Shown here one piece after another: positions 14,005-28,563 of a stretch of DNA of 64,000 nt. Both the position numbers and the translations under genes were made by a program. How positions within the stretch are numbered: the first letter of the stretch is position 1; every line of letters starts with the position of its first letter. The stretch lies in assembly GCA_020635235.1 (NCBI GenBank), contig JACKAF010000002.1:63614-127613 (forward strand), written 5' to 3'. The notes under the pieces were generated by a model. That model searched no databases and was not told where the DNA came from. It worked only from the letters and a program-made list of their open reading frames with translations. The stretch is from Pseudobdellovibrionaceae bacterium (GTDB lineage: Bacteria; Bdellovibrionota; FAC87; UBA2466; JACKAF01).

Positions 14005-14274
14005 ATGACATTGAATGGGTATGAGAAAATGCGCTTAGATCTGGCTATGCCGCTTTTGATCATTCGGGGGAAACGCGGATTTGTGTCCAATCCTTATATG
14101 AACGCTTCGGTTTGCTCACGCAAAACAAAAGAGGCGTGCGCGATTGTGGCAGGTGAAATCCACTCGCACCACGAGATGATTGAAGCGAAAGTTATCGAAG
14201 TATCGGATACCGCCCGCGCGCTTGGAGTACGGGTAGGGATGACTGGCGGCGAAGCTTTGGCCCGCTTCAAATAG
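14005..14274 (+). CDS. DUF1805 (YunC-like) domain protein
   Basis: 89 aa. The pattern 'LLIIRGKRGFV...Y' followed by 'V.GM.G.EAL' resembles the YunC family. Confidence 0.6.
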   Translation: MTLNGYEKMRLDLAMPLLIIRGKRGFVSNPYMNASVCSRKTKEACAIVAGEIHSHHEMIEAKVIEVSDTARALGVRVGMTGGEALARFK

Positions 14275-14334
14275 GATCAGCTCCGGCCTTTCCTTTAGTT
14301 TGCCATTGCTCGTAAATTTAGTATCACTTCACCG

Positions 14335-17079
14335 ATGGAACCCAAGAGCCAAGCCCTGGAGGAGTCTACTCTTTGGCACTCGCTTCCTGTGACTGAGGTA
14401 GAAGCACGCCTTCAGTCCGATCATACGGTGGGTCTTAGTTCGGAAGACGTCCGTGAACGGCAATTGCGATTGGGTGAAAACAAATTGCCAGCATCCCGTT
14501 CGGTGCCTTGGTTGCTTCGCCTTCTTTCCCAGTTCAACCAGCTGCTTATTTGGATTCTATTTTTGGCCGCGATCTTTTCTGGCTACCTCGGAGACTGGGG
14601 TGAGGCCGTTGCGATTCTTGGCATCGTTCTACTCAATGGCTTGCTGGGATTTTTTCAAGAGATAAGAGCTGAAAGATCGATCCAAGCTCTCCAGCAACTT
14701 ACCGCTCCGTTGGCGCGTGTGCGGCGTGGGGGGCGCCAGTGCCTGGTGCCGGCGGCGGAACTGGTGCCGGGCGACACGGTCGAGCTTGAGGCCGGTGACA
14801 AATTACCCGCGGATTGTCGTGTGGTGTCCGCCTTTTCCGTTAGCGTCGACGAGGCCTCATTAACAGGCGAGTCGGTGACCGTATCCAAGAGCGCCGAAGA
14901 GTTGGCGCCGGCCACGCCTTTAGTCGATCGCCGCAATATGTTTTACTCCGGGACTGTGGTGACCTCGGGTAAAGCAACAGCCATCGTCGTGGCCACCGGA
15001 GTGCGCACAGAACTTGGAAAGATTGCTAACCTCCTGGAAAGCGAACCCTGGAAAGAAACCCCGCTACAGAAAAGGTTGCGTGAGTTAGGTAGGGTCCTGC
15101 TCTTCGCCTGCTTGGCCATCGTCGCGGTGATATTCGGACTTCAACTCTTGCGGGGCGGGCAGATCCTAGAGACGCTTCTCTTTTCGATCAGTTTGGCCGT
15201 GGCCGCAGTGCCCGAGGGGCTCCCTGTTGTCGTGACTGTCACCCTTTCTATAGGGCTCCAGCGCATGGCTAAACGCAATGCAATTATCCGCTCGCTACCC
15301 AGCGTAGAAACCCTCGGCTCTGTTAGTACCATTTGTTCTGACAAGACGGGCACGCTCACTCGGAACCAGATGACAGTTCGAGAAGTCTATGCGGGGGATG
15401 CCCGTTATTCGGTGGAGGGGACCGGCTATTGGCCGACGGGGCAGTTTTTTTTGCAAGGGGCTCATGGGAAGGCAGCCGAGAACCCCTGCGCGGATCCCCT
15501 GCTCACGAAGTTAATGCTTGCTGGCAGTCTCTGTACGAACGCGCGCCTGTACTCGGGGACTACGGATGACGCCGAACCGAGCGTTGTTGGGGATCCGACT
15601 GAGATAGCGCTGCTTGTGCTTTCCGCCAAGGCAGGGCTCCGCGCGGACGGCTATTTCAAAGAAGCGGAGATTCCATTTGATTCAAATCGCAAAATGATGT
15701 CGGTTTTGGTACGCGATTCCGCGGAGAATCATACTGTTTACAGCAAAGGAGCCGTGGAAGCGATCCTCGGGGCTTGTGGCCAGGAGAGGCTTGGGAATGT
15801 AGAGGTCCCCTTGGACGACCGACGCGGGCTTTGGTTGCAGCGTGCCCACGAACTGTCGGCAAGGGCATTGCGGGTGCTCGCGTTGGCGTACCGCGAGGGA
15901 GGTGCCTCAGAGGGTCGAATCGAGGAAAAGGACCTAGTTTTCTTAGGACTCGTCGGAATGATGGATCCCCCGCGGAGCGAAGTGGCGGATGCCATCCAAA
16001 AATGCAAGAGCGCGGGTATCCGTCCTATCGTGATTACAGGTGACCATCCTGCGACCGCCCTGGCGGTCGCCCAAGAGCTCGGCATCGTGGGAGCGGAGGC
16101 CAACGCGACTACGGGAGCTGAACTGGATGGGCTTAACGGAGACGAACTCGACGCCAGAGTGCGAAAAACCTCCGTGTACGCGCGCGTTTCGCCGGAAAAT
16201 AAACTTCAAATTGTCCGAGCTCTAAGGCAGCAAGGGGAGACGGTGGCGATGACGGGCGACGGCGTGAACGACGCGCCAGCAGTAAAAGCCGCGGATATCG
16301 GAATTAGCATGGGTTTGACAGGAACCGAGGTGACCAAGGAAGCCGCGGACATGGTTCTTGTGGATGACAACTTTGTATCGATCGTCAACGCAGTCGAGGA
16401 GGGACGTTGCCTTTTTGAGAACCTGCAGAAGTTTGTCCACTATTTGCTAGCGTGCAACGTGAGCGAAATTCTCCTGGTTTTTGTCGCGGCGGTCTTGGGC
16501 TGGCCCCAACCGCTTTTGGCGATTCAGATTCTTTGGATCAATTTGGTCACAGATGGCCCGCCAGCGCTGGCGATGGCCTTTGAAACCCCCGCGCCCGATG
16601 TGATGGTGCGCGCCCCTCGCCCGGTAACAAGAGCCTTTTTTGATGCGCAGATTGTCCGGGACATCATTGGCCATGGGCTTCTCATCTCCGCCGCTTCGAT
16701 TATTGGTTTTTGGAGCGTTCTACCTGGACCCGACGCCGGCCCTCCAGAAATCTCCAATGCCCGCGGGGTGGCGTTTTGTGTCTGCGGGTTTGCTCAATTG
16801 TTGTTCGCGTTTGCCTGTCGGAGCAACCGGTTCACCGCTCTGCAACTCGGGATTTTCTCCAATCCAGTTCTTTTTTTTGGTGTTGTGACATCCGTTTTGC
16901 TGCAAGCATGCATTGTCCTTTTCCCTCCCGCACAAATAATTTTCTTTGCTCACGCACCTGATTTGAGTCCTTATTGGCTTCGCATTGCCTGCCTGTCCTT
17001 CTTGCCACTCTTACTCGCCGAAACATTCAAGTGGGTGTCCAATTTGAGGATAAAAAAACGGGAGTCTCGAAATGCTTAG
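14335..17079 (+). CDS. Cation-transporting P-type ATPase, type IIA (Ca2+-ATPase-like)
   Basis: The phosphorylation motif 'CSDKTGTLT', the A-domain motif 'TGES', the hinge 'MTGDGVNDAPA' and 10-TM-like hydrophobic segments are all present. Confidence 0.9.
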   Translation: MEPKSQALEESTLWHSLPVTEVEARLQSDHTVGLSSEDVRERQLRLGENKLPASRSVPWLLRLLSQFNQLLIWILFLAAIFSGYLGDWGEAVAILGIVLLNGLLGFFQEIRAERSIQALQQLTAPLARVRRGGRQCLVPAAELVPGDTVELEAGDKLPADCRVVSAFSVSVDEASLTGESVTVSKSAEELAPATPLVDRRNMFYSGTVVTSGKATAIVVATGVRTELGKIANLLESEPWKETPLQKRLRELGRVLLFACLAIVAVIFGLQLLRGGQILETLLFSISLAVAAVPEGLPVVVTVTLSIGLQRMAKRNAIIRSLPSVETLGSVSTICSDKTGTLTRNQMTVREVYAGDARYSVEGTGYWPTGQFFLQGAHGKAAENPCADPLLTKLMLAGSLCTNARLYSGTTDDAEPSVVGDPTEIALLVLSAKAGLRADGYFKEAEIPFDSNRKMMSVLVRDSAENHTVYSKGAVEAILGACGQERLGNVEVPLDDRRGLWLQRAHELSARALRVLALAYREGGASEGRIEEKDLVFLGLVGMMDPPRSEVADAIQKCKSAGIRPIVITGDHPATALAVAQELGIVGAEANATTGAELDGLNGDELDARVRKTSVYARVSPENKLQIVRALRQQGETVAMTGDGVNDAPAVKAADIGISMGLTGTEVTKEAADMVLVDDNFVSIVNAVEEGRCLFENLQKFVHYLLACNVSEILLVFVAAVLGWPQPLLAIQILWINLVTDGPPALAMAFETPAPDVMVRAPRPVTRAFFDAQIVRDIIGHGLLISAASIIGFWSVLPGPDAGPPEISNARGVAFCVCGFAQLLFAFACRSNRFTALQLGIFSNPVLFFGVVTSVLLQACIVLFPPAQIIFFAHAPDLSPYWLRIACLSFLPLLLAETFKWVSNLRIKKRESRNA

Positions 17080-18058
17080 CGCGATTCTTCAGTTCGTAGC
17101 GGCGGGTGCGGTGATCTTTCTCGCGGGTGCGGCGTTGACGCGCTTCGCGGATGTCATCGCGGATCTTACTAAGATGGGACGCCTACTGGCGGGCAGTGTC
17201 CTACTGGCTTCGGCGACCTCTCTTCCCGAGCTAATAGTGGATGTTTCTGCTGCCCGTTCCGGTCTGCTGGATCTTGCGGTCGGGGATCTCATGGGGAGCA
17301 GCCTTTGCAACCTGTTCATCCTTGCTGTTTTGGACATCGTCAGTCGGCCGCAGCTTCGCGCCTTGGGGCGAGCGTCCACATCCCATGCTTTGGCCGGCGT
17401 CGCGAGCATTTCTCTGGCGGCAGTGGCCGCGCTTAGCATACTTCTCGGGCCTCGATTGGCGCCCTTTGAAGTAGGTAGCGTAGGAGTAGGCTCGATCGCC
17501 CTGCTCATTACCTACTTGTTTGGTCTGCGTCTGGTATTCTTCGATCAACGCTTGGAACCGGCTGGGGCAAAAAGCAGTTCGCCCCCGATGCACCTGTCCG
17601 CCGCTGTTTTCGGGTACCTCGCGACTGCCGGACTTATTCTCTTGGCGGCGCCTTACCTTGTCAGGGCCGCCGCGCAAATCGCTACAAGCGCGCACATTGG
17701 GACCACCTTTGTAGGGACGACGATGGTGGCTCTTAGTACCTCGCTGCCCGAGCTTGTGACAACACGCGCGGCGCTAAAGCGGGGAGCAAGCGATTTGGCC
17801 ATTGGGAATGTACTAGGAAGCAATGCCTTTAACATGGTTATCCTCGTGGCGTTGGATTTCGTGGTGGAGGGCCCCGTGCTTAGCCGAGTTTCCAGCACGC
17901 ACGCGCTGACGGCCATCTGCACAATCTTCGTTACGACGATAGCCATCATGAGCCAACTGTACCGCTTAGAGAAAAGAAAGATACTTGTCGAACCAGACGC
18001 GTACTTGGTTCTCATTCTGGTACTTGCGTCGTTGGGACTTGTATTTTGGATTGGATAA
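17072..18058 (+). CDS. Sodium/calcium exchanger family (CaCA, YrbG-like) membrane protein
   Basis: Two alpha-repeat motifs, 'ATSLPELIV' and 'STSLPELVT', are present in a polytopic protein. It overlaps the ATPase gene's stop by 8 nt. Confidence 0.85.
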   Translation: MLSAILQFVAAGAVIFLAGAALTRFADVIADLTKMGRLLAGSVLLASATSLPELIVDVSAARSGLLDLAVGDLMGSSLCNLFILAVLDIVSRPQLRALGRASTSHALAGVASISLAAVAALSILLGPRLAPFEVGSVGVGSIALLITYLFGLRLVFFDQRLEPAGAKSSSPPMHLSAAVFGYLATAGLILLAAPYLVRAAAQIATSAHIGTTFVGTTMVALSTSLPELVTTRAALKRGASDLAIGNVLGSNAFNMVILVALDFVVEGPVLSRVSSTHALTAICTIFVTTIAIMSQLYRLEKRKILVEPDAYLVLILVLASLGLVFWIG

Positions 18059-18062
18059 GATG

Positions 18063-20381
18063 CTAGGCCGCTTTTTCAAGTTCGCTGATTTCTTTTAGCA
18101 ACTTCTCTTTTTCAATGGCCCACTGAGTGTGCATTTGAAGCCACAGGGCGTTGGTGATCTTGCCGCTTATCTTGTCTTCGTAGGCCTGTTGGATCTGCAG
18201 TTCGACTTCCTTGAGCCGCGTCCGAGCCTGATCGAGAGGGGAAAGATCCGAGTGCGAAGGGCTTTCTGGTGCCTTTGTCTCGTTGGACGGAGCGTCCCAA
18301 TTTGCCTGCGAAGGGCGGTTCCAAAGCGGGGCTGGCGGTTTGGGTAGACCGCTTCCTGTTTGGTTCTCCTCCTCCGGATCGGATACCGAGGCTCCCCAGA
18401 AGGCATTTTTGGAATCGGTTTCGTTCCAGCTTCCCTGCTTTTCTTCCCAATCTTTATCCTCTGAAGCTTCTGTCTCGGATTCTTGCGCGGGTCGCTGCGC
18501 GCGGCGAGCCTCGATCTGATCGAGGATATCCTGCATCGATTCCGCCGTAATATTGGGCGGGGGAATTTCTGTGTTGGTTTGTTCTATGTCGGAATCTGAA
18601 TTCGCATCCGCGTCCAGATCGTCACTTGCCGACACACCAGAGTGCGTGACGGTATTTTCGTCTTTTTCTTCCGCGCGTTCTTGCTGCATTTTTTCGAGAA
18701 GTGTCGCCATGGCGTTGGAAGCTTCATCGGCCTCGGTGTATTCGGTAGAGGCCGAGGCTTCAGCTGCGCTCTCAGGACTCTCTTGTTTGGGGAAAGACTC
18801 ACCTAGTGGAATTCCACCAAAGGCGACTTCTGGGGGACGCATGGGCCCCGATACTTGCGGTTCCGGAAACTCTTCTAGCGCTTCCTCGGACTCATGGGTG
18901 TTGTTGTCGGTCGGGATGCCTCCGTAAGACATCTGATCCGGCATCGAGTGTTCTGTCGAGGCGGGTGTACTGACCTGCCATTCGGAAGCGTCTTCTTTTG
19001 TTTCCCCGTCTGTACTTTCGTTAGCTTCAGGAGTCGCCACGGCGTGCTCACTAGACTCCGTAACCGGCTCTTCCGCATGCGCGTGAACGATTATTTCCTT
19101 CGATTCTGTTTCAGGGGTGTCGTGAACGATGGTTTCCTTCGCTTCTGTTTCCGAATCTTCGTGAACAATGCTCTCTTTTGCTTCTGCAGAGGCGGCTAAC
19201 AAAATCTTATCTTCTTCCGGCACATCCCCTTCGACAATCAGATCAGGATCGACGGAGGGCTGGGCCGCGTTGGTCGAGCTTTCGTGTGTCGGGGTGGCTG
19301 CCTCGGGCGCTTCGTCTACCCAGGTGTTTTCGAGTGGCTCGCCGACATCCGCTGATGCTTCGCTTTCGCGGGATTCTTCCGTTTCGGCAGCCTGTTCGGA
19401 GGCCTCCAGCTGAGCGAGAAGATCGGAAGAAAGCGGCTCGGGTACTTCGTCTTGTGATTCGGGGTGGCTCTCTTTATTAGCGATCTCGACCACTGTCTCC
19501 GTAACCTGTTCGGCCTCGTTCTCAGTCGGGGTTTCCACTTCCGCCATCGCTTCCAGTACCGGGCTCGGCGATTGGGGCTGGGAGGTGTGCGTCTCGCGGG
19601 CGTGCCCAGTATGGGTTTGGTTCCGATTGTTCCATACGAACGAAAGTAGGCCGCCGATCTCTTCTCCCAAAGTGCGCAATTTGCTATGGACCGGGAACAT
19701 CAGGTTGAGGCCACTCAATCCTACGAATAGGGCCATGCCCAGCGCTGCGGGCCCAAAAAACCATGAAACCGTATGCGCGAAATCTCTCAGCGGGGCGATG
19801 TCCATCGGCGTTTCCGCGAGCCGGTTGACGAGCTCGGGGATGGCAGCCGCGACACCCAGGCACGAAGCGAAGACTCCGAGGAGAAAAAGAATTCCGGGAA
19901 GCGCGCCTACAAAACGGGCGCCGCTTTCTACAGGAATGCCTCCCAGAAGATGGGTGAGGGAGCGGGTGCTGGCGCGCGCGGCGCGGACGGCAGAACGAAA
20001 GTCTTCCTGCGTGAGAGCCCCGTGGCTGTTTTCTACCCACGGGCGGAGATTGGTGCGAAACTCCTCCCAGTCGGTTCTTTGAGTAAATAAGTAGTCAATG
20101 AGGCGCGAAAGGAATCCCGATTTGGCGCGCAATTCGGTTTCCGCTTCTTTCAGAATGCTGTCGACCAGCTCGGCGTAGCTAGCGGCCTCCTGCGAAAGCC
20201 AGTTGGGAGCGACCTGCTGGGCACGCAACGCAAACTGCTCCTCTTTGCGAAGAGTGCGCGACGCGCTGATGCGAACATAAAGTGCAATGAGGGAAACAAA
20301 CAACATGAACGGGGCGGCGCCGATAGAGAGAGTGTGTATCGCCATTTGAATGGTGGCTTCATCAAGGCTTGGCATGGGCAT
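18063..20381 (-). CDS. Membrane protein with ExbB/TolQ/MotA-like topology, a long polyacidic disordered tail and a C-terminal coiled coil
   Basis: TM1 is near residue 20, followed by a ~120-aa loop and two TM segments around residues 158-230. Residues ~265-700 are rich in E/D/S/T/P. The protein ends in a heptad-like 'LKEVELQIQQAYEDK...LLKEISELEKAA'. The family assignment is tentative. Confidence 0.45.
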   Translation of the reverse strand: MPMPSLDEATIQMAIHTLSIGAAPFMLFVSLIALYVRISASRTLRKEEQFALRAQQVAPNWLSQEAASYAELVDSILKEAETELRAKSGFLSRLIDYLFTQRTDWEEFRTNLRPWVENSHGALTQEDFRSAVRAARASTRSLTHLLGGIPVESGARFVGALPGILFLLGVFASCLGVAAAIPELVNRLAETPMDIAPLRDFAHTVSWFFGPAALGMALFVGLSGLNLMFPVHSKLRTLGEEIGGLLSFVWNNRNQTHTGHARETHTSQPQSPSPVLEAMAEVETPTENEAEQVTETVVEIANKESHPESQDEVPEPLSSDLLAQLEASEQAAETEESRESEASADVGEPLENTWVDEAPEAATPTHESSTNAAQPSVDPDLIVEGDVPEEDKILLAASAEAKESIVHEDSETEAKETIVHDTPETESKEIIVHAHAEEPVTESSEHAVATPEANESTDGETKEDASEWQVSTPASTEHSMPDQMSYGGIPTDNNTHESEEALEEFPEPQVSGPMRPPEVAFGGIPLGESFPKQESPESAAEASASTEYTEADEASNAMATLLEKMQQERAEEKDENTVTHSGVSASDDLDADANSDSDIEQTNTEIPPPNITAESMQDILDQIEARRAQRPAQESETEASEDKDWEEKQGSWNETDSKNAFWGASVSDPEEENQTGSGLPKPPAPLWNRPSQANWDAPSNETKAPESPSHSDLSPLDQARTRLKEVELQIQQAYEDKISGKITNALWLQMHTQWAIEKEKLLKEISELEKAA
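19083..19199 (-). repeat. Three tandem 39-bp repeats encoding [A/S]KE[S/T/I]IVH-acidic 13-mers
   Basis: The gtgaac units start at 19083, 19122 and 19161. The translated units are AKESIVHEDSETE, AKETIVHDTPETE and SKEIIVHAHAEEP. Confidence 0.8.
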
Positions 20382-21309
20382 CTCCGCTCTCTTTAAATTG
20401 AACTCTAAGCACTATCTTTTTGGGGTCCTCACAACCGTAGTGCTGACACAGGCTGGCCGCGGCGTCCTTTTTGTTTTGGAGGCTGGGCTGGGCGTCTAGA
20501 TAGTTGATCCGAGAAACCTTGATCAGCTTCATCAAATCCTTCTGGTTCTTGAATTTGGTTTTCTTGCTATCAAAAATGGATCGGTAAATGGAGCGTGAAC
20601 GTTGGTAACCGAGATCCATGTCCAGCGTGTTTTCTTTCTTGTCTCCCAAGGCCACCAGCTCAATTTGCGCGATGTTTCTCTTAAAGTTGGGATGGTTAAA
20701 AATGTGATCGGCGTAGATAGTGAAAACCGAGTTGAGGTTTTTCTGCAGTCGAGGCGTCACACGAGAACTCCCTCGGGTGAAGTAGCTGCCTGCCAGGTGA
20801 ACGATCACCTCGCCTTGCCTTAGCTTGATCGTTGTGTTGAAGCCCGCCTCCGCGAGCCCGCGTTCCAGTTGAGCCATCAGGTCGCGGCGGGTTCCTGCCT
20901 GCTTGCGCATTGTCGTTAGCTGGCGTTGCAATTTTGGGTTTCCGAGCAGGGTCGAAGCCACATCCATGCTGGCTACTTGCGGCTGGCGAGCGATTTCTGT
21001 CGCTGCGGCCCTTTCCACCACTTCGATTTCCGAAAGCAGGAGTCCATAGATATCCGCTTCTTCATTTACTGCCTGGTTTCCCAAAAAGGCTTTTACGGCG
21101 TCGTGCCGAGCGACCCGGTGTTTGAGACGGGTGTTTTCGCTTTTGGCTGTGCTTAGGGCGGTCTGGTAGGCCCACGTGCTTACGGCGCCGTGGATTCCAC
21201 CTAGAGCGCTCCCCATTAAAAGGAGGACGGAGAGGCCCACCAGGGCGTAGGCCCACGGGACCTCGTAATCATTGGGTTTTGACCCATCGTACCAGTCGTT
21301 TAGTGCCAA
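20362..21309 (-). CDS. Single-pass membrane protein with a divergent OmpA/MotB-like C-terminal domain
   Basis: It has an N-terminal TM segment (VPWAYALVGLSVLLLMGSALGG) and a central coiled coil. The C-terminal 'YFTRGSSRVTPRLQKNL...IELVALGD...LGYQRSRSIYRSIF' resembles the OmpA_C pattern. It overlaps the downstream gene's start by 20 nt. Confidence 0.45.
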   Translation of the reverse strand: MALNDWYDGSKPNDYEVPWAYALVGLSVLLLMGSALGGIHGAVSTWAYQTALSTAKSENTRLKHRVARHDAVKAFLGNQAVNEEADIYGLLLSEIEVVERAAATEIARQPQVASMDVASTLLGNPKLQRQLTTMRKQAGTRRDLMAQLERGLAEAGFNTTIKLRQGEVIVHLAGSYFTRGSSRVTPRLQKNLNSVFTIYADHIFNHPNFKRNIAQIELVALGDKKENTLDMDLGYQRSRSIYRSIFDSKKTKFKNQKDLMKLIKVSRINYLDAQPSLQNKKDAAASLCQHYGCEDPKKIVLRVQFKESGDAHAKP

Positions 21310-21385
21310 AGAATCCTCCGGATGTAGTATCGGCTTGCGGCAAGGCTAGCTAAAGTCGGTGGGCTGGCGTAGAGTACGCCCCGTG

Positions 21386-24144: not shown

Positions 24145-24996
24145 ATGAACACTCCATCCAATATTTATGATTTCACGGACTACCGTGATTTTTTGAAAGA
24201 CCGCTACCGCCAATTGAAAGAAACTGATCCGGCCTTTAGCTTTCGCTATTTTTCGAAGCAGGCGGGTTTTGGTTCACCCAACTACCTGAAGTTGGTGATG
24301 GACGGAAAACGCAACTTGAGCGATGAAGCGATTGGCAAATTCGCCAAGGGCCTTCGTTTGGATAGCCACGAGAGTGAATATTTCAAATTCATGGTCGGCT
24401 ACAACCAGTGCGAAGATCGCATCAAAAAAGAAGTTTATGAAGCGAAGCTGCATTACCTTCGTGAGCTGTTCAAGGTGAAGGAACTCATTCCTGAGCACTA
24501 CGACTACTACCACGATTGGTACCATGCCGCGATTCGCGAAATGATCAACAACAAGGGCACTGTGCGCAACAACCCTGTGGTTATCGCCGCCAAGCTCTCT
24601 CCGCAGATCAGCGAGGAAGATGCAGCGAACTCCATTAGCCTGCTCAAGAAGCTCGGCTATGTCGTTGAAAACGGAAACGGCGATCTGCAACCCGGCCAAG
24701 GCACGGAAACGGCCGTCGCGGGTGCGGAAATGGCCCAGAAGATTTACCACGAACAGATGGCGGAACTTGCCGCGAAGTCTCTCTACACCCAAGGGTCTGC
24801 GACCCAAGAGTTTGAGAGCGTTACGGTCGCTCTGCCTGCGAACAAGGTGGCCGAGCTCAAGCAGAAGATTAAAGAGCTCGTCGCTGAAGTAAGCAACGAA
24901 CACGGTGGGGAGCAGGTGTACCAATTCAACGTACAGCTGTTCGCGCTGACCCAGGAAGACGGCGAAGAAACTGCGCCGCAGCCTGAAGTCGCCTAA
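24145..24996 (+). CDS. TIGR02147/DUF4423 family protein (paralog 1)
   Basis: The N-terminus 'YDFTDYRDFLKDRYRQLKE.DPAFSFRYFSKQAGFGSPNYLKLVMDGKRNLS' is the hallmark of this family of unknown function. Confidence 0.8.
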   Translation: MNTPSNIYDFTDYRDFLKDRYRQLKETDPAFSFRYFSKQAGFGSPNYLKLVMDGKRNLSDEAIGKFAKGLRLDSHESEYFKFMVGYNQCEDRIKKEVYEAKLHYLRELFKVKELIPEHYDYYHDWYHAAIREMINNKGTVRNNPVVIAAKLSPQISEEDAANSISLLKKLGYVVENGNGDLQPGQGTETAVAGAEMAQKIYHEQMAELAAKSLYTQGSATQEFESVTVALPANKVAELKQKIKELVAEVSNEHGGEQVYQFNVQLFALTQEDGEETAPQPEVA

Positions 24997-26099: not shown

Positions 26100-26145
26100 A
26101 ACCTAGAGCGTAGGGGAAAGTTACGAACTTTAGGGGGTTTTGAAG

Positions 26146-26997
26146 ATGAACACTCCATCCAACATTTACGATTTCACGGACTACCGTGATTTCCTGAAAG
26201 ACCGCTACCGTCAATTGAAGGAAAGCGATCCAGCTTTCAGCTTCCGACATTTTTCCAAACAAGCAGGTTTTGGTTCACCCAACTACCTGAAGTTGGTGAT
26301 GGACGGAAAACGCAATTTGAGCGATGAAGCGATTGGCAAGTTCGCCAAGGGCCTTCGTTTGGATAGCCACGAGAGTGAATATTTCAAATTCATGGTCGGC
26401 TATAACCAGTGCGAAGACCGCATCAAAAAAGAAGTTTATGAAGCGAAGCTGCATTACCTTCGTGAGTTGTTCAAGGTGAAGGAACTCATTCCTGAACATT
26501 ACGACTACTACCACGACTGGTACCATGCCGCGATTCGCGAAATGATCAACAACAAGGGCACTGTGAAAAACAACCCTGCCGGCATCGCCGCCAAGCTCTC
26601 TCCGCAGATCTCGGAAGAAGACGCCGCAGCTTCCATTCTGTTGCTCAAGAAATTGGGTTACGTGACGGAAAACGCGAATGGCGAACTGCAGGCCGGCGAA
26701 GGCGCGGACGTCATGATGGCGGGCGCTGAAATGGCCCAAAAGATTTACCATGAGCAAATGGCGGAACTCGCCGCGAAGTCTCTCTACACCCAAGGGTCTG
26801 AGACCCAAGAGTTTGAGAGCGTCACGGTCGCTCTGCCGGCGAACAAAGTCGCCGAGCTCAAACAGAAGATCAAAGAACTGGTCGCTGAAGTCAGCAACCA
26901 GCACGGTGGGGAGCAGGTGTACCAATTCAACGTACAGCTGTTCGCGCTGACCCAGGAAGACGGCGAAGAAACCGCGCCGCAGCCTGAAGTCGCTTAA
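26146..26997 (+). CDS. TIGR02147/DUF4423 family protein (paralog 2)
   Basis: 283 aa, collinear with paralog 1 and without indels. I placed the start at ATG 26146; the track uses TTG 26140. Confidence 0.8.
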   Translation: MNTPSNIYDFTDYRDFLKDRYRQLKESDPAFSFRHFSKQAGFGSPNYLKLVMDGKRNLSDEAIGKFAKGLRLDSHESEYFKFMVGYNQCEDRIKKEVYEAKLHYLRELFKVKELIPEHYDYYHDWYHAAIREMINNKGTVKNNPAGIAAKLSPQISEEDAAASILLLKKLGYVTENANGELQAGEGADVMMAGAEMAQKIYHEQMAELAAKSLYTQGSETQEFESVTVALPANKVAELKQKIKELVAEVSNQHGGEQVYQFNVQLFALTQEDGEETAPQPEVA

Positions 26998-27753: not shown

Positions 27754-28563
27754 CTAGCGACGGCGGGAAGAGCGCCGTTTCTTAGCAACGGACTTGCGGT
27801 TTTTGCGGGATTCCGCGACTTCCGCCTTTTTCTTTGCGGTCGCTTCTGTGAACTCCGAAAGATCCGAAGTCGGGGGTTCCGGACGTTTCGCGATCTCCGC
27901 CGGTCGGGCAACCTTTGCTTTTAGCGAATTTACGGCGGCCGCAACAGGTTTATCCAAAACCGTTTGCCGGACAGATTGGGAATACAACAAGCTGATCCCT
28001 GAGAGTACTAACGCCACTAAACTCGCCACCAGAGCCGCTTTCACTCCCTTGGGAGGCTTTGCTTGGTGTTGCTTTGCCATTTCTTGGAGCATCCTGTCGT
28101 ACGCGATAGGAAGTTCGCCGAGCATACCGGAGACGCGCTCAAAATTCTTGGAGACGTGCTCAGTCGTGTCTTTCACCATGGTCCACTGCTTCGCCATGGA
28201 CTCCATGCTTTGCTGCATGGCGCCGGCTACCAAGGTGGCCTCCTGGCGTGGGCTTTCCAGAGAAATTTCGATAGGGGAGGCTTCATCGGAAAGAGAATCC
28301 GGCTCAATGGCTTCGACTTCTTCTTCCGCTGCCTTGGCTTTCTTGCTGCTTTTTTTCTTAGCCTTTTTCTTGGACTTCTTGGCGGTCTTCTTGGGTTTTG
28401 CCTCTTCCAGTTCCAATTCTACCGTGGCTTCTTCGTCAAAGTCCTCAAGCTCGAGCTCGGAGGCTTCTTCGCCATCGTCATCCAAATCGAGATCCATCTC
28501 TTCGAGATCGATTACGTCTGTCTTTTCTTCGATCTCACTCTGATTCTTTTTCTTGCGCCCCAT
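27754..28563 (-). CDS. Hypothetical single-pass membrane protein with acidic and Lys-rich low-complexity regions
   Basis: 269-aa ORF with one hydrophobic segment (AALVASLVALVLSGISLLY). I recognised no family. Confidence 0.4.
   Translation of the reverse strand: MGRKKKNQSEIEEKTDVIDLEEMDLDLDDDGEEASELELEDFDEEATVELELEEAKPKKTAKKSKKKAKKKSSKKAKAAEEEVEAIEPDSLSDEASPIEISLESPRQEATLVAGAMQQSMESMAKQWTMVKDTTEHVSKNFERVSGMLGELPIAYDRMLQEMAKQHQAKPPKGVKAALVASLVALVLSGISLLYSQSVRQTVLDKPVAAAVNSLKAKVARPAEIAKRPEPPTSDLSEFTEATAKKKAEVAESRKNRKSVAKKRRSSRRR

Follow-up and report, generated by a model that had tools for sequence, protein, structure and literature searches.

Organization of the gene pair

The window analyzed here, which is the whole 64,000-nt stretch of DNA from the genome (79% complete) of an uncultured Bdellovibrio-type bacterium of the Pseudobdellovibrionaceae, carries on its minus strand two overlapping genes, designated B and A in the order in which they follow each other, whose products have ZorB and ZorA of the Zorya system as their nearest known relatives. 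Judging from the residues at the positions concerned, this copy of the pair has very probably lost the canonical ion site of such stators.

Gene B (20362..21309) codes for a ZorB/MotB-like single-pass protein of 315 aa, as concluded from its open reading frame (ORF) and from PADLOC and Foldseek searches. It begins with a TTG codon located 5 nt downstream of a GGAGG ribosome-binding site (21315..21319), which was read directly from the sequence, and neither codon 24 nor codon 32, which could also serve as starts in this frame, is preceded by a comparable site. Gene A (18063..20381) codes for a ZorA-like protein with a length of 772 aa if the ORF is taken as called. The true start is probably the second ATG at 20375, giving a protein of 770 aa, because all three orthologues, which are found in congeners and have lengths of 770, 755 and 685 aa, begin with MPSLDE and because there is a GGAG 6 nt before this ATG. 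The 20-nt overlap mentioned in the preliminary description is thus correct for the ORFs as called, that is with the first ATG of A, but is probably 14 nt with the second one. The rest of that arrangement, namely two overlapping ORFs at these positions coding for a protein with one plus two transmembrane (TM) helices and a single-pass protein, was confirmed by the ORFs and by hydropathy. A scan for promoters and terminators gave nothing above the shuffled expectation.

The single TM helix of B is located by hydropathy at about residues 19–43 (21181..21255), reads PWAYALVGLSVLLLMGSALGGIHGAV without any acidic residue, and is preceded by 18 N-terminal residues which are net acidic. It is followed by a helical stalk (20848..21180, about residues 44–154), delimited with the help of AF2 helices and the alignment to relatives of 518–1062 aa, and by an OmpA/ZorB-like periplasmic domain (20392..20847, about residues 155–306), assigned by AF2, Foldseek and alignment. 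Protein A is composed of a membrane domain (19602..20381, residues 1–260), a polyacidic cytoplasmic tail (18237..19601, residues 261–715) and a C-terminal module of 57 aa (18066..18236) ending in ELEKAA. According to hydropathy and the AF2 model, the membrane domain includes TM1 (residues ~14–36), a cytoplasmic helical loop of ~120 aa, TM2 (residues ~156–184, LPGILFLLGVFASCLG) and TM3 (residues ~205–229, FGPAALGMALF).

Protein B

No usable match for B was found in Pfam or NCBIfam. The PADLOC model ZorB1 (PDLC00609) matches B with E=1.1e-15, and the profile of B matches the ZorB chains 8vvi_A (6e-7) and 8qyd_F (6.6e-4). The same relationship is seen at the level of fold: the top three Foldseek matches of the AF2 monomer of B are the ZorB chains 8vvi_A, 8vvn_B and 8qyd_F (E ~2.5e-6), followed by PomB, MotB, MotS, Pal and OmpA-like domains. 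The periplasmic domain is modelled with a predicted local distance difference test (pLDDT) score of 83–97, and three helices of the stalk (residues 20–79, 82–108 and 125–154) with a score of 50–65. B had been described as MotB/OmpA-like, which is borne out by these matches; its likeness to the OmpA_C family (PF00691), which had also been proposed, is seen in the fold by Foldseek but has no counterpart in a Pfam sequence match and is hence structural only.

The word-index search with B returned only two congeners, and the search of related genomes revealed distant homologues with 23–31% identity in five genomes of the same order belonging to other genera. Annotation pipelines call both proteins of the pair "hypothetical", and B could be mislabelled as ZorB by defence-finder tools.

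The parent family of B-A modules

The wider family was collected by scanning one genome per species with a search pattern which was built without the window's sequence and contained the motif GIFGTF. This resulted in 166 loci, 80 of which were retrieved. The hosts are Bdellovibrionota, including Bacteriovoracaceae, Halobacteriovoraceae, Oligoflexia, Silvanigrellaceae, Bacteriovorax sp. BSW11_IV (M899_3053) and Peredibacter sp. HCB2-198, both in culture, and many metagenome-assembled genomes (MAGs) labelled Gammaproteobacteria. In 74 of 78 loci the gene immediately preceding A is B, and where this is not so, contig ends or ORF calling are responsible; the same order is found in the five same-order genomes reached via B, where an A-like gene lies within a few bases, and in all three congeners. 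The co-occurrence of the two genes in other genomes, by which the preliminary description had wished the pair to be judged, is therefore well established. In MotAB and the surveyed non-flagellar homologues the B gene follows the A gene (PMC12505986), so the B-then-A order is a trait of this family.

In the same-order genomes, canonical B is a protein of ~650 aa consisting of a MotB-type TM helix (W.SYSDL), a coiled coil of ~450 aa and the same C-terminal domain as in the window's B; it matches ZorB1 at 1e-27 to 1e-29 and, weakly, MotB_plug (0.0035). Canonical A has 313–448 aa in these genomes and matches the ZorA models at ~1e-7 across TM2–TM3, with values of only 0.08–0.24 for the Pfam family MotA_ExbB. 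Relative to this plan, the rod of the window's B is only ~110 aa long versus a coiled coil of 450–900 aa in canonical relatives (B of 518–1062 aa), so that the stalk appears from the alignment to be the remnant of their longer rod, and a 17-aa loop of the periplasmic domain is deleted. The window's B still has, as Cys288/Cys293, the cysteine pair that all 75 relatives share.

The only further recurrent gene, referred to here as the FHA partner, is located directly downstream of A; of the Bdellovibrionota loci, 34 out of 45 have it at this place, and not one of the 27 gamma-like loci does. It codes for a protein with an N-terminal FHA domain, which also matches the YscD cytoplasmic domain, a coiled coil of 550–1150 aa, one TM helix and a conserved C-terminal domain of ~160–200 aa that has no match in Pfam. 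This architecture is constant in Peredibacter sp. HCB2-198 (L068:9059-12427, WP_408098657) and at 30 other loci. Other conserved neighbours, namely an ABC transporter, an enoyl-CoA hydratase, an aminotransferase and an SDR protein, were rejected as partners as they represent local housekeeping synteny among close gammaproteobacterial MAGs.

The gamma-labelled loci (L026–L069; for example L027:1143-4331 and L066:5062-8004) form a monophyletic clade with 100% support, in which B is longest (675–1062 aa), A is shortest (~299 aa, often with a 1–4 nt overlap with B) and the FHA partner is never present. Such a clade could have arisen by transfer out of the Bdellovibrionota or could consist of mislabelled bins.

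The A proteins of the family are labelled "hypothetical protein" in RefSeq (in Peredibacter sp. HCB2-198 the module is represented by WP_408098656/WP_408098657), and the literature search found no publication on the family. The module is a widespread, unannotated relative of Zorya in predatory bacteria.

Protein A

For A, neither Pfam nor NCBIfam, both of which were searched with A and B, gave anything usable, the sole match being a spurious one to haloalkane dehalogenase (E 0.13), and the PADLOC ZorA models did not match the window's A directly. The homology of A therefore had to be shown via its relatives. The family profile, built without the window's sequence, matches A with E=1.1e-16 over 271 of 300 positions (16–286), and this is its only match in the genome. 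The same profile matches the ZorA chains 8qyy, 8qyh, 8qyk and 8qyd at 3e-9 to 1.5e-7 and, more weakly, the ZorA chains 8vvn_C and 8vvi_F, and no MotA, ExbB or TolQ chain was matched. In an exhaustive phmmer search, residues 1–270 of A found just 13 proteins at E <= 1e-3 among 1.84e9 representatives.

The AF2 models made in this work are those of monomers (B and residues 1–270 of A). The model of A has a pLDDT of 84 and a predicted template modelling score of 0.74, and its Foldseek matches are almost only ExbB, TolQ and ZorA chains with a probability of ~1 and a template modelling score (TM-score) of up to 0.52, such as ExbB 5sv0 (TM-score 0.52) and ZorA 8qyh_A (TM-score 0.51, probability 1.0). 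Core positions invariant across the family are P162, G169, G176, P182, F201, G215, N226 and W250, and the window's A retains the motifs LPG and PEL as well as G215, N226 and W250. The profile and the fold are thus in line with the earlier suggestion that the first ~260 aa of A are similar to the ExbB, TolQ and ZorA subunits.

The alternative that A and B are merely unrelated neighbours, an acidic membrane protein beside an OmpA-like anchor, draws on the failure of Pfam and NCBIfam to recognise either protein and of the PADLOC ZorA models to recognise the window's A. It has to contend with the adjacency of B and A in 74 of 78 loci over two phyla and in all three congeners, with the overlap of the genes by 14–20 nt, and with the homology of each protein to a subunit of one and the same complex already known, and we regard it as hardly credible. 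Descent of the pair from a ZorAB-like stator, with homology of both subunits, is almost certain.

Ion-site and wall-contact residues

According to Hu et al. and Mariano et al., the TM Asp of ZorB (D26, D24 or D21) is essential in Zorya and is surrounded by a polar ring made up of T147 and S184 of ZorA; Zorya function is abolished by the exchange D26N as well as by the combined exchanges T147A and S184A (PMC11946911, PMC11890865). This Asp has been described as universally conserved and essential in MotAB, ExbBD, TolQR and ZorAB (PMC11946911, PMC11890865, PMC9389320), and it is found in the TM helix of B in all 62 relatives with an intact N-terminus (W.SYSDLF). The TM helix of the window's B, PWAYALVGLSVLLLMGSALGG, has no acidic residue and reads WAYALV where the family has W.SYSDLF. 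In the MAFFT alignment, the window's B reads PWAYALVGLSVLLLMGS and the columns of the Asp and the neighbouring Leu appear as a two-residue gap. The Asp-less helix occurs in three assemblies, namely that of the window, that of an independent MAG (protein P0001, with an identical N-terminus) and that of the congener G001.

At the start of the TM region of B, the congener G001 (L014:9480-9530, compared with window positions 21235-21265) has a 1-nt indel, CTGGTGGGCCTC versus TTGCGGGCCTC, and its annotated B starts at an internal GTG without the first 18–24 residues. Either the indel is an assembly error or the N-terminal cytoplasmic stub is dispensable.

The polar ring of A is altered as well. In TM2, the window has GVFASC where the family has GIFGTF, so that the equivalent of ZorA T147 is Ser173, and in TM3 the equivalent of ZorA S184, a Ser in 77 of 78 relatives, is Ala212. 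Both residues are invariant in the three congeners, and one hydroxyl position out of two is kept. Since the search pattern contained GIFGTF, the invariance of this motif among L015–L094 is circular, and 16 relatives found independently of the motif were used instead, all of which keep the Thr of GTF. Inside the four TM helices of A and B there is no Asp or Glu at all; the closest acidic residue is Glu183 at the periplasmic end of TM2, which is conserved family-wide. The ion-driven stator function implied in the preliminary description is at odds with these residues, the TM Asp of B having been deleted together with its neighbour and the two polar-ring positions of A being occupied by Ser and Ala.

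The residues Y151, N152, L155 and R159, the contacts of E. coli ZorB with the cell wall that have been probed by mutation, map to the family motif YNxDLSYxR, and all four are kept by the family. At these positions the window's B reads LDMDLGYQR (L229, D230, L233 and R237), so half of them are unchanged. In the window's genome (G000), in G001 and in four genomes of the nearest clade, one of which is 100% complete, there is no FHA partner; G032, used as a control, gave a match at 1e-65. All in all, the copy in the window represents a strongly derived branch confined to one genus.

The cytoplasmic part of A

The tail of A (residues 261–715) contains 112 D+E versus 22 K+R, with a net charge of −90, and consists of 25% D/E, 28% S/T/P and 16% hydrophobic residues, and on the basis of this composition it is probably disordered. 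The tandem 13-aa repeats noticed earlier were recovered by TRF as 2.7 copies of a 39-bp unit (19082..19186, score 112, 78% matches) coding for 13-aa units with a KE.IVH core. Compared with a congener, the tail has 41 gapped columns; its length varies among the three congeners, and the repeat block varies by species, being reduced to one degenerate copy in G001 and wholly absent from P0028.

At the same time, at least five islands of the tail are invariant in the three congeners, although synonymous sites are saturated: LSxDLLAQLE, DMPDQMxYGGIPT...GPMRPPEVAFGGIPLGESF, EASNAMATLLE, EQTNTEIPPPNITAESMQ.ILDQIEARRAQRPA and PPAPLWNRPS, with ITAESMQ.ILDQIEARRAQRPA and two GGIP-containing motifs being among them. 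The tail had been characterized as extremely acidic, which is true of its composition, but low-complexity acidic sequence makes up only part of it, and it is an expanded linker between TM3 and the C-terminal module.

The sequence GGIP is found three times in A, at residues 147–150, 487–490 and 522–525 (~19932-19943, ~18912-18923 and ~18807-18818, respectively). The first copy is located in the conserved juxtamembrane segment before TM2 (LLGGIPVES) and the other two in invariant islands of the tail (SYGGIPT and AFGGIPLGESF), so the tail copies might mimic the juxtamembrane segment.

The C-terminal 57 aa are the best conserved part of A with 95% identity to the congener, and judging from their sequence pattern they may be helical. 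Within the family, a homologous module is present only in L016–L018 (E from 1e-25 to 1e-31), with the C-termini aligning as one block, and among 5.8e9 proteins only the three congeners were found, counting proteins of comparable length. The module is related to no part of the FHA partner. Most A proteins of the family (L015–L094) end with a basic residue and small residues (KAA, EAA, KAS, KRA, RRA or KVA), similarly to ELEKAA of the window's A, and this shared ending may be a recognition motif for a protease, an adaptor or a docking domain.

Selection and phylogeny

In comparisons of the window with its congener, selection was expressed as the ratio of the proportions of nonsynonymous and synonymous differences (pN/pS), since synonymous sites are too saturated (pS ~0.75) for a Jukes-Cantor estimate of the synonymous rate, which makes the ratios only rough: 0.08 for the membrane domain of A, 0.033 for its C-terminal module, 0.09 for B and 0.385 for the tail, with 0.06 for serA, 0.13 for folP and 0.29 for folC as controls. 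Both genes are under strong purifying selection outside the tail.

These data bear on the possibility that the genes are decaying relics and the acidic tail is a neutral expansion by slippage. The loss of hallmark residues, rod and partner gene would agree with decay, as would the variable length of the tail with its slippage-type repeats and the 1-nt indel at the start of B in G001. Both frames are nevertheless intact in three assemblies, and pN/pS outside the tail (0.03–0.09) is as low as that of serA. Because of these low ratios and of the islands and the C-terminal module, which are invariant across three species with saturated synonymous sites, pseudogenisation was set aside as highly improbable.

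In the tree of concatenated A and B proteins, the window and the congener are placed on a stem of ~5.9 substitutions per site, typical branches being 0.1–0.6, and they share a split with 100% support with L015–L018, which are the copies of other Pseudobdellovibrionaceae and thus of the closest taxonomic relatives. This fits vertical inheritance of the pair with extreme acceleration.

Comparison with known systems

By both profile and fold, the closest systems for both subunits are the ZorA/ZorB pairs of Zorya (E. coli type I, 8QYD; Shewanella type I, 8VVN; Sulfuricurvum type II, 8VVI). A shares with ZorA the ExbB-like topology of three TM helices, the LPG kink and a long C-terminal extension, and B shares with ZorB a single TM helix, an OmpA-like domain, conserved cysteines and the position of the YNxxLxxxR wall-binding motif. 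The differences are that B lacks the equivalent of D26 and has a helical stalk between the TM helix and the wall-binding domain, which ZorB does not have, that T147 and S184 of ZorA are replaced by Ser and Ala in A, and that the tail of A is acidic and, by its composition, probably disordered with a short terminal module, whereas ZorA has a long helical bundle. The pair is also arranged in the order B then A in a housekeeping context without ZorC/D/E or ZorF/G nearby, the inverted order and the missing ZorC/D/E-like effector having already been noted in the preliminary description, and does not belong to Zorya in the strict sense.

One could nevertheless imagine that the pair is a variant of the Zorya type of defence against phages, with the gene for its effector at another site or with the acidic tail in the place of an effector, perhaps by mimicking DNA. 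In favour of this, no solved or modelled relatives are closer than ZorA and ZorB, and the long C-terminal tail of ZorA is needed for signalling (PMC11946911). We consider it very unlikely. Among the ten genes flanking the pair there is no ZorC, ZorD or ZorE and no other meaningful PADLOC or defence match, the gene order is inverted, and residues needed for Zorya defence are missing. Moreover, the family occurs in housekeeping contexts differing between lineages, and its tree broadly tracks taxonomy, pointing to vertical inheritance rather than to a mobile defence island.

The direct parent family is the B-A(-FHA) module, with which the pair shares gene order, tight coupling, the core of A and the wall-binding domain of B with its Cys pair; the nearest clade, L016–L018, also has the same C-terminal module of A. 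Canonical A is however short (~300–450 aa), in contrast to the window's A with its 455-aa acidic tail, and canonical members keep the TM Asp, the Thr of GTF, the Ser of TM3, four wall contacts and a long rod, none of which is present in full in the window's copy.

ExbB-ExbD and TolQ-TolR resemble the pair in the fold of A (ExbB 5sv0 and TolQ), in the one plus two TM arrangement and in the large cytoplasmic loop, but there is no significant sequence match, B is of the OmpA/ZorB type and not of the ExbD/TolR fold, the gene order is B-A and not A-B, and no TonB- or TolA-like gene was found among the neighbours of the pair. With MotA-MotB and PomA-PomB, the likeness is in the C-terminal domain of B, which superposes on the periplasmic domains of MotB, PomB and MotS, and in the weak matches of its relatives to MotB_plug; A has three TM helices and not four and no torque-generating interface, neither A nor B has a Pfam match, the order is B-A, and there are no flagellar genes near the pair. 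GldL-GldM and PorL-PorM are comparable by analogy only: they are 5:2 motors with a long periplasmic shaft on the B-like subunit and a long cytoplasmic tail on the A-like one, for which anchoring to a partner has been proposed, and the acidic residue is not on the B-like subunit (PMC9389320, PMC8986121). No sequence or fold match to the pair was found, and an acidic residue within the membrane, Glu49, is essential in GldL, while the window's A has none there.

Possible function of the pair

It seems somewhat more reasonable than not to suggest that the pair as a whole is an ion-dead relative of ZorAB that has been preserved because it anchors to the envelope without moving and offers a platform for docking; taken by itself, the static-scaffold function has about an even chance. 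Canonical members of the family consist of a B protein with an Asp-containing TM helix, a periplasmic coiled coil of 450–900 aa and a disulfide-containing ZorB-like wall-binding domain, followed by an A protein of the ExbB/ZorA type with three TM helices and GIFGTF and, in most Bdellovibrionota, by the FHA/giant coiled-coil/TM protein. In the window's genus, the ion-coupling chemistry has been dismantled, since the Asp of B has been deleted and a single Ser is all that is left of the hydroxyl ring of A. Two of the four peptidoglycan-contact residues of B have been replaced, the rod has been cut to ~110 aa and the FHA partner has been lost, and the linker between TM3 and the clade-specific C-terminal module of A has lengthened to ~455 aa, being polyanionic and including conserved islands that may serve for docking. 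A and B would still assemble as an A5B2-type inner-membrane complex, in which the shortened stalk and the OmpA-like dimer of B would reach the cell wall. Having no protonatable group, such a complex would be unable to conduct ions or to rotate, and the five acidic tails with their terminal modules might serve in the cytoplasm as a docking platform or spacer recruiting or positioning partners.

Every characterised 5:2 motor (MotAB, PomAB, ExbBD, TolQR, ZorAB, GldLM) depends on an intramembrane acidic residue, so the deletion of the Asp combined with housekeeping-level constraint on both subunits suggests a second, non-motor use of this architecture, or else may point to a new ion-coupling chemistry. 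With slightly less than even confidence, the pair can be regarded as the first member of the 5:2 superfamily seen to be under strong purifying selection after the loss of the protonatable residue and of half of the polar ring; its A5B2 assembly would have been exapted to a passive anchor whose five tails organise cytoplasmic partners at the membrane.

The main competitor of the static scaffold is a pair that is still an ion-driven 5:2 motor using a non-canonical pathway, with the acidic tail as a rotating output like the tail of ZorA. Such a pathway could involve a water wire past the Ser173 ring, Glu183 of A, or a protonatable histidine, either His40 of B or His16 of A. The very strong constraint on the membrane domain, the retention of LPG, PEL, G215, N226 and W250, and the hydroxyl of the family Thr preserved in Ser173 speak for it, and GldLM, with its essential acidic residue on the A-like and not on the B-like subunit (PMC8986121), indicates that 5:2 motors are not strictly bound to one place for the charge. 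On the other hand, no acidic residue is left within any TM helix of A or B, the Asp described as universally conserved and essential in MotAB, ExbBD, TolQR and ZorAB was lost through a two-residue deletion which also shifts the register of the helix, the second polar-ring residue is Ala, and a changed function is suggested by the length of the stem (~5.9 substitutions per site). A motor of this kind is accordingly considered unlikely, though it deserves to be kept in mind.

Several points weigh against the static scaffold itself. The assembly of A with B and their ratio are taken over from homology, as is the membrane orientation of B, which is not certain in view of its acidic N-terminus. The loss of ion flow is deduced from residues, with Ser173 still providing a hydroxyl, with His40 of B and His16 of A being protonatable and with the acidic residue sitting on the other subunit in GldLM, and a pN/pS of 0.08 in the TM domain, itself a rough value, would also fit a channel working by other chemistry. 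The position of the window's copy in the tree is subject to the effects of a very long branch and of unusual composition. A partner or a canonical second copy could lie in the missing part of the 79% complete genome, and a role as a scaffold, with a postulated partner for the tail, is a tentative proposal.

If the static-scaffold explanation is true, the pair would show that the 5:2 architecture can be used without ion flow and would provide a natural dead-motor control for the unstudied ZorAB-like machine of the Bdellovibrionota. The copies form an evolutionary series leading from the canonical B-A-FHA module through loss of the FHA partner and gain of the C-terminal module of A to loss of the motor residues and expansion of the tail, and comparison of these stages could show the input, the engine and the output of a ZorAB-like machine.

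Other features of the locus

The ten genes flanking the pair are serA, a serC-like aminotransferase gene, folP, folK, folC and genes coding for a DUF1805 protein, a P-type ATPase, a Na/Ca exchanger, a DUF4423 protein and a GT2 protein. The block of the DUF1805, P-type ATPase and Na/Ca exchanger genes (14005-18058) separates serA and the serC-like gene from A, and in the congener the distance from serA to A is only ~1.8 kb, which means that the block is probably not next to the pair there and seems to have been inserted or deleted in one of the lineages. A functional tie of the acidic tail to the adjacent Ca2+ pump and exchanger through cation binding was considered and dropped, as these genes are convergent and the gap in the congener is too small for them.

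Two near-identical DUF4423/TIGR02147-type paralogues (24145-24996 and 26140-26997) are located one on either side of the GT2 gene. At 27754-28563 (minus strand), 6 kb from the pair, there is a gene coding for a second charge-segregated membrane protein of 269 aa, whose N-terminal third is strongly acidic (DLDLDDDGEE..ELELEDFDEE) and is accompanied by a block rich in lysine, a single TM helix and a basic C-terminus.

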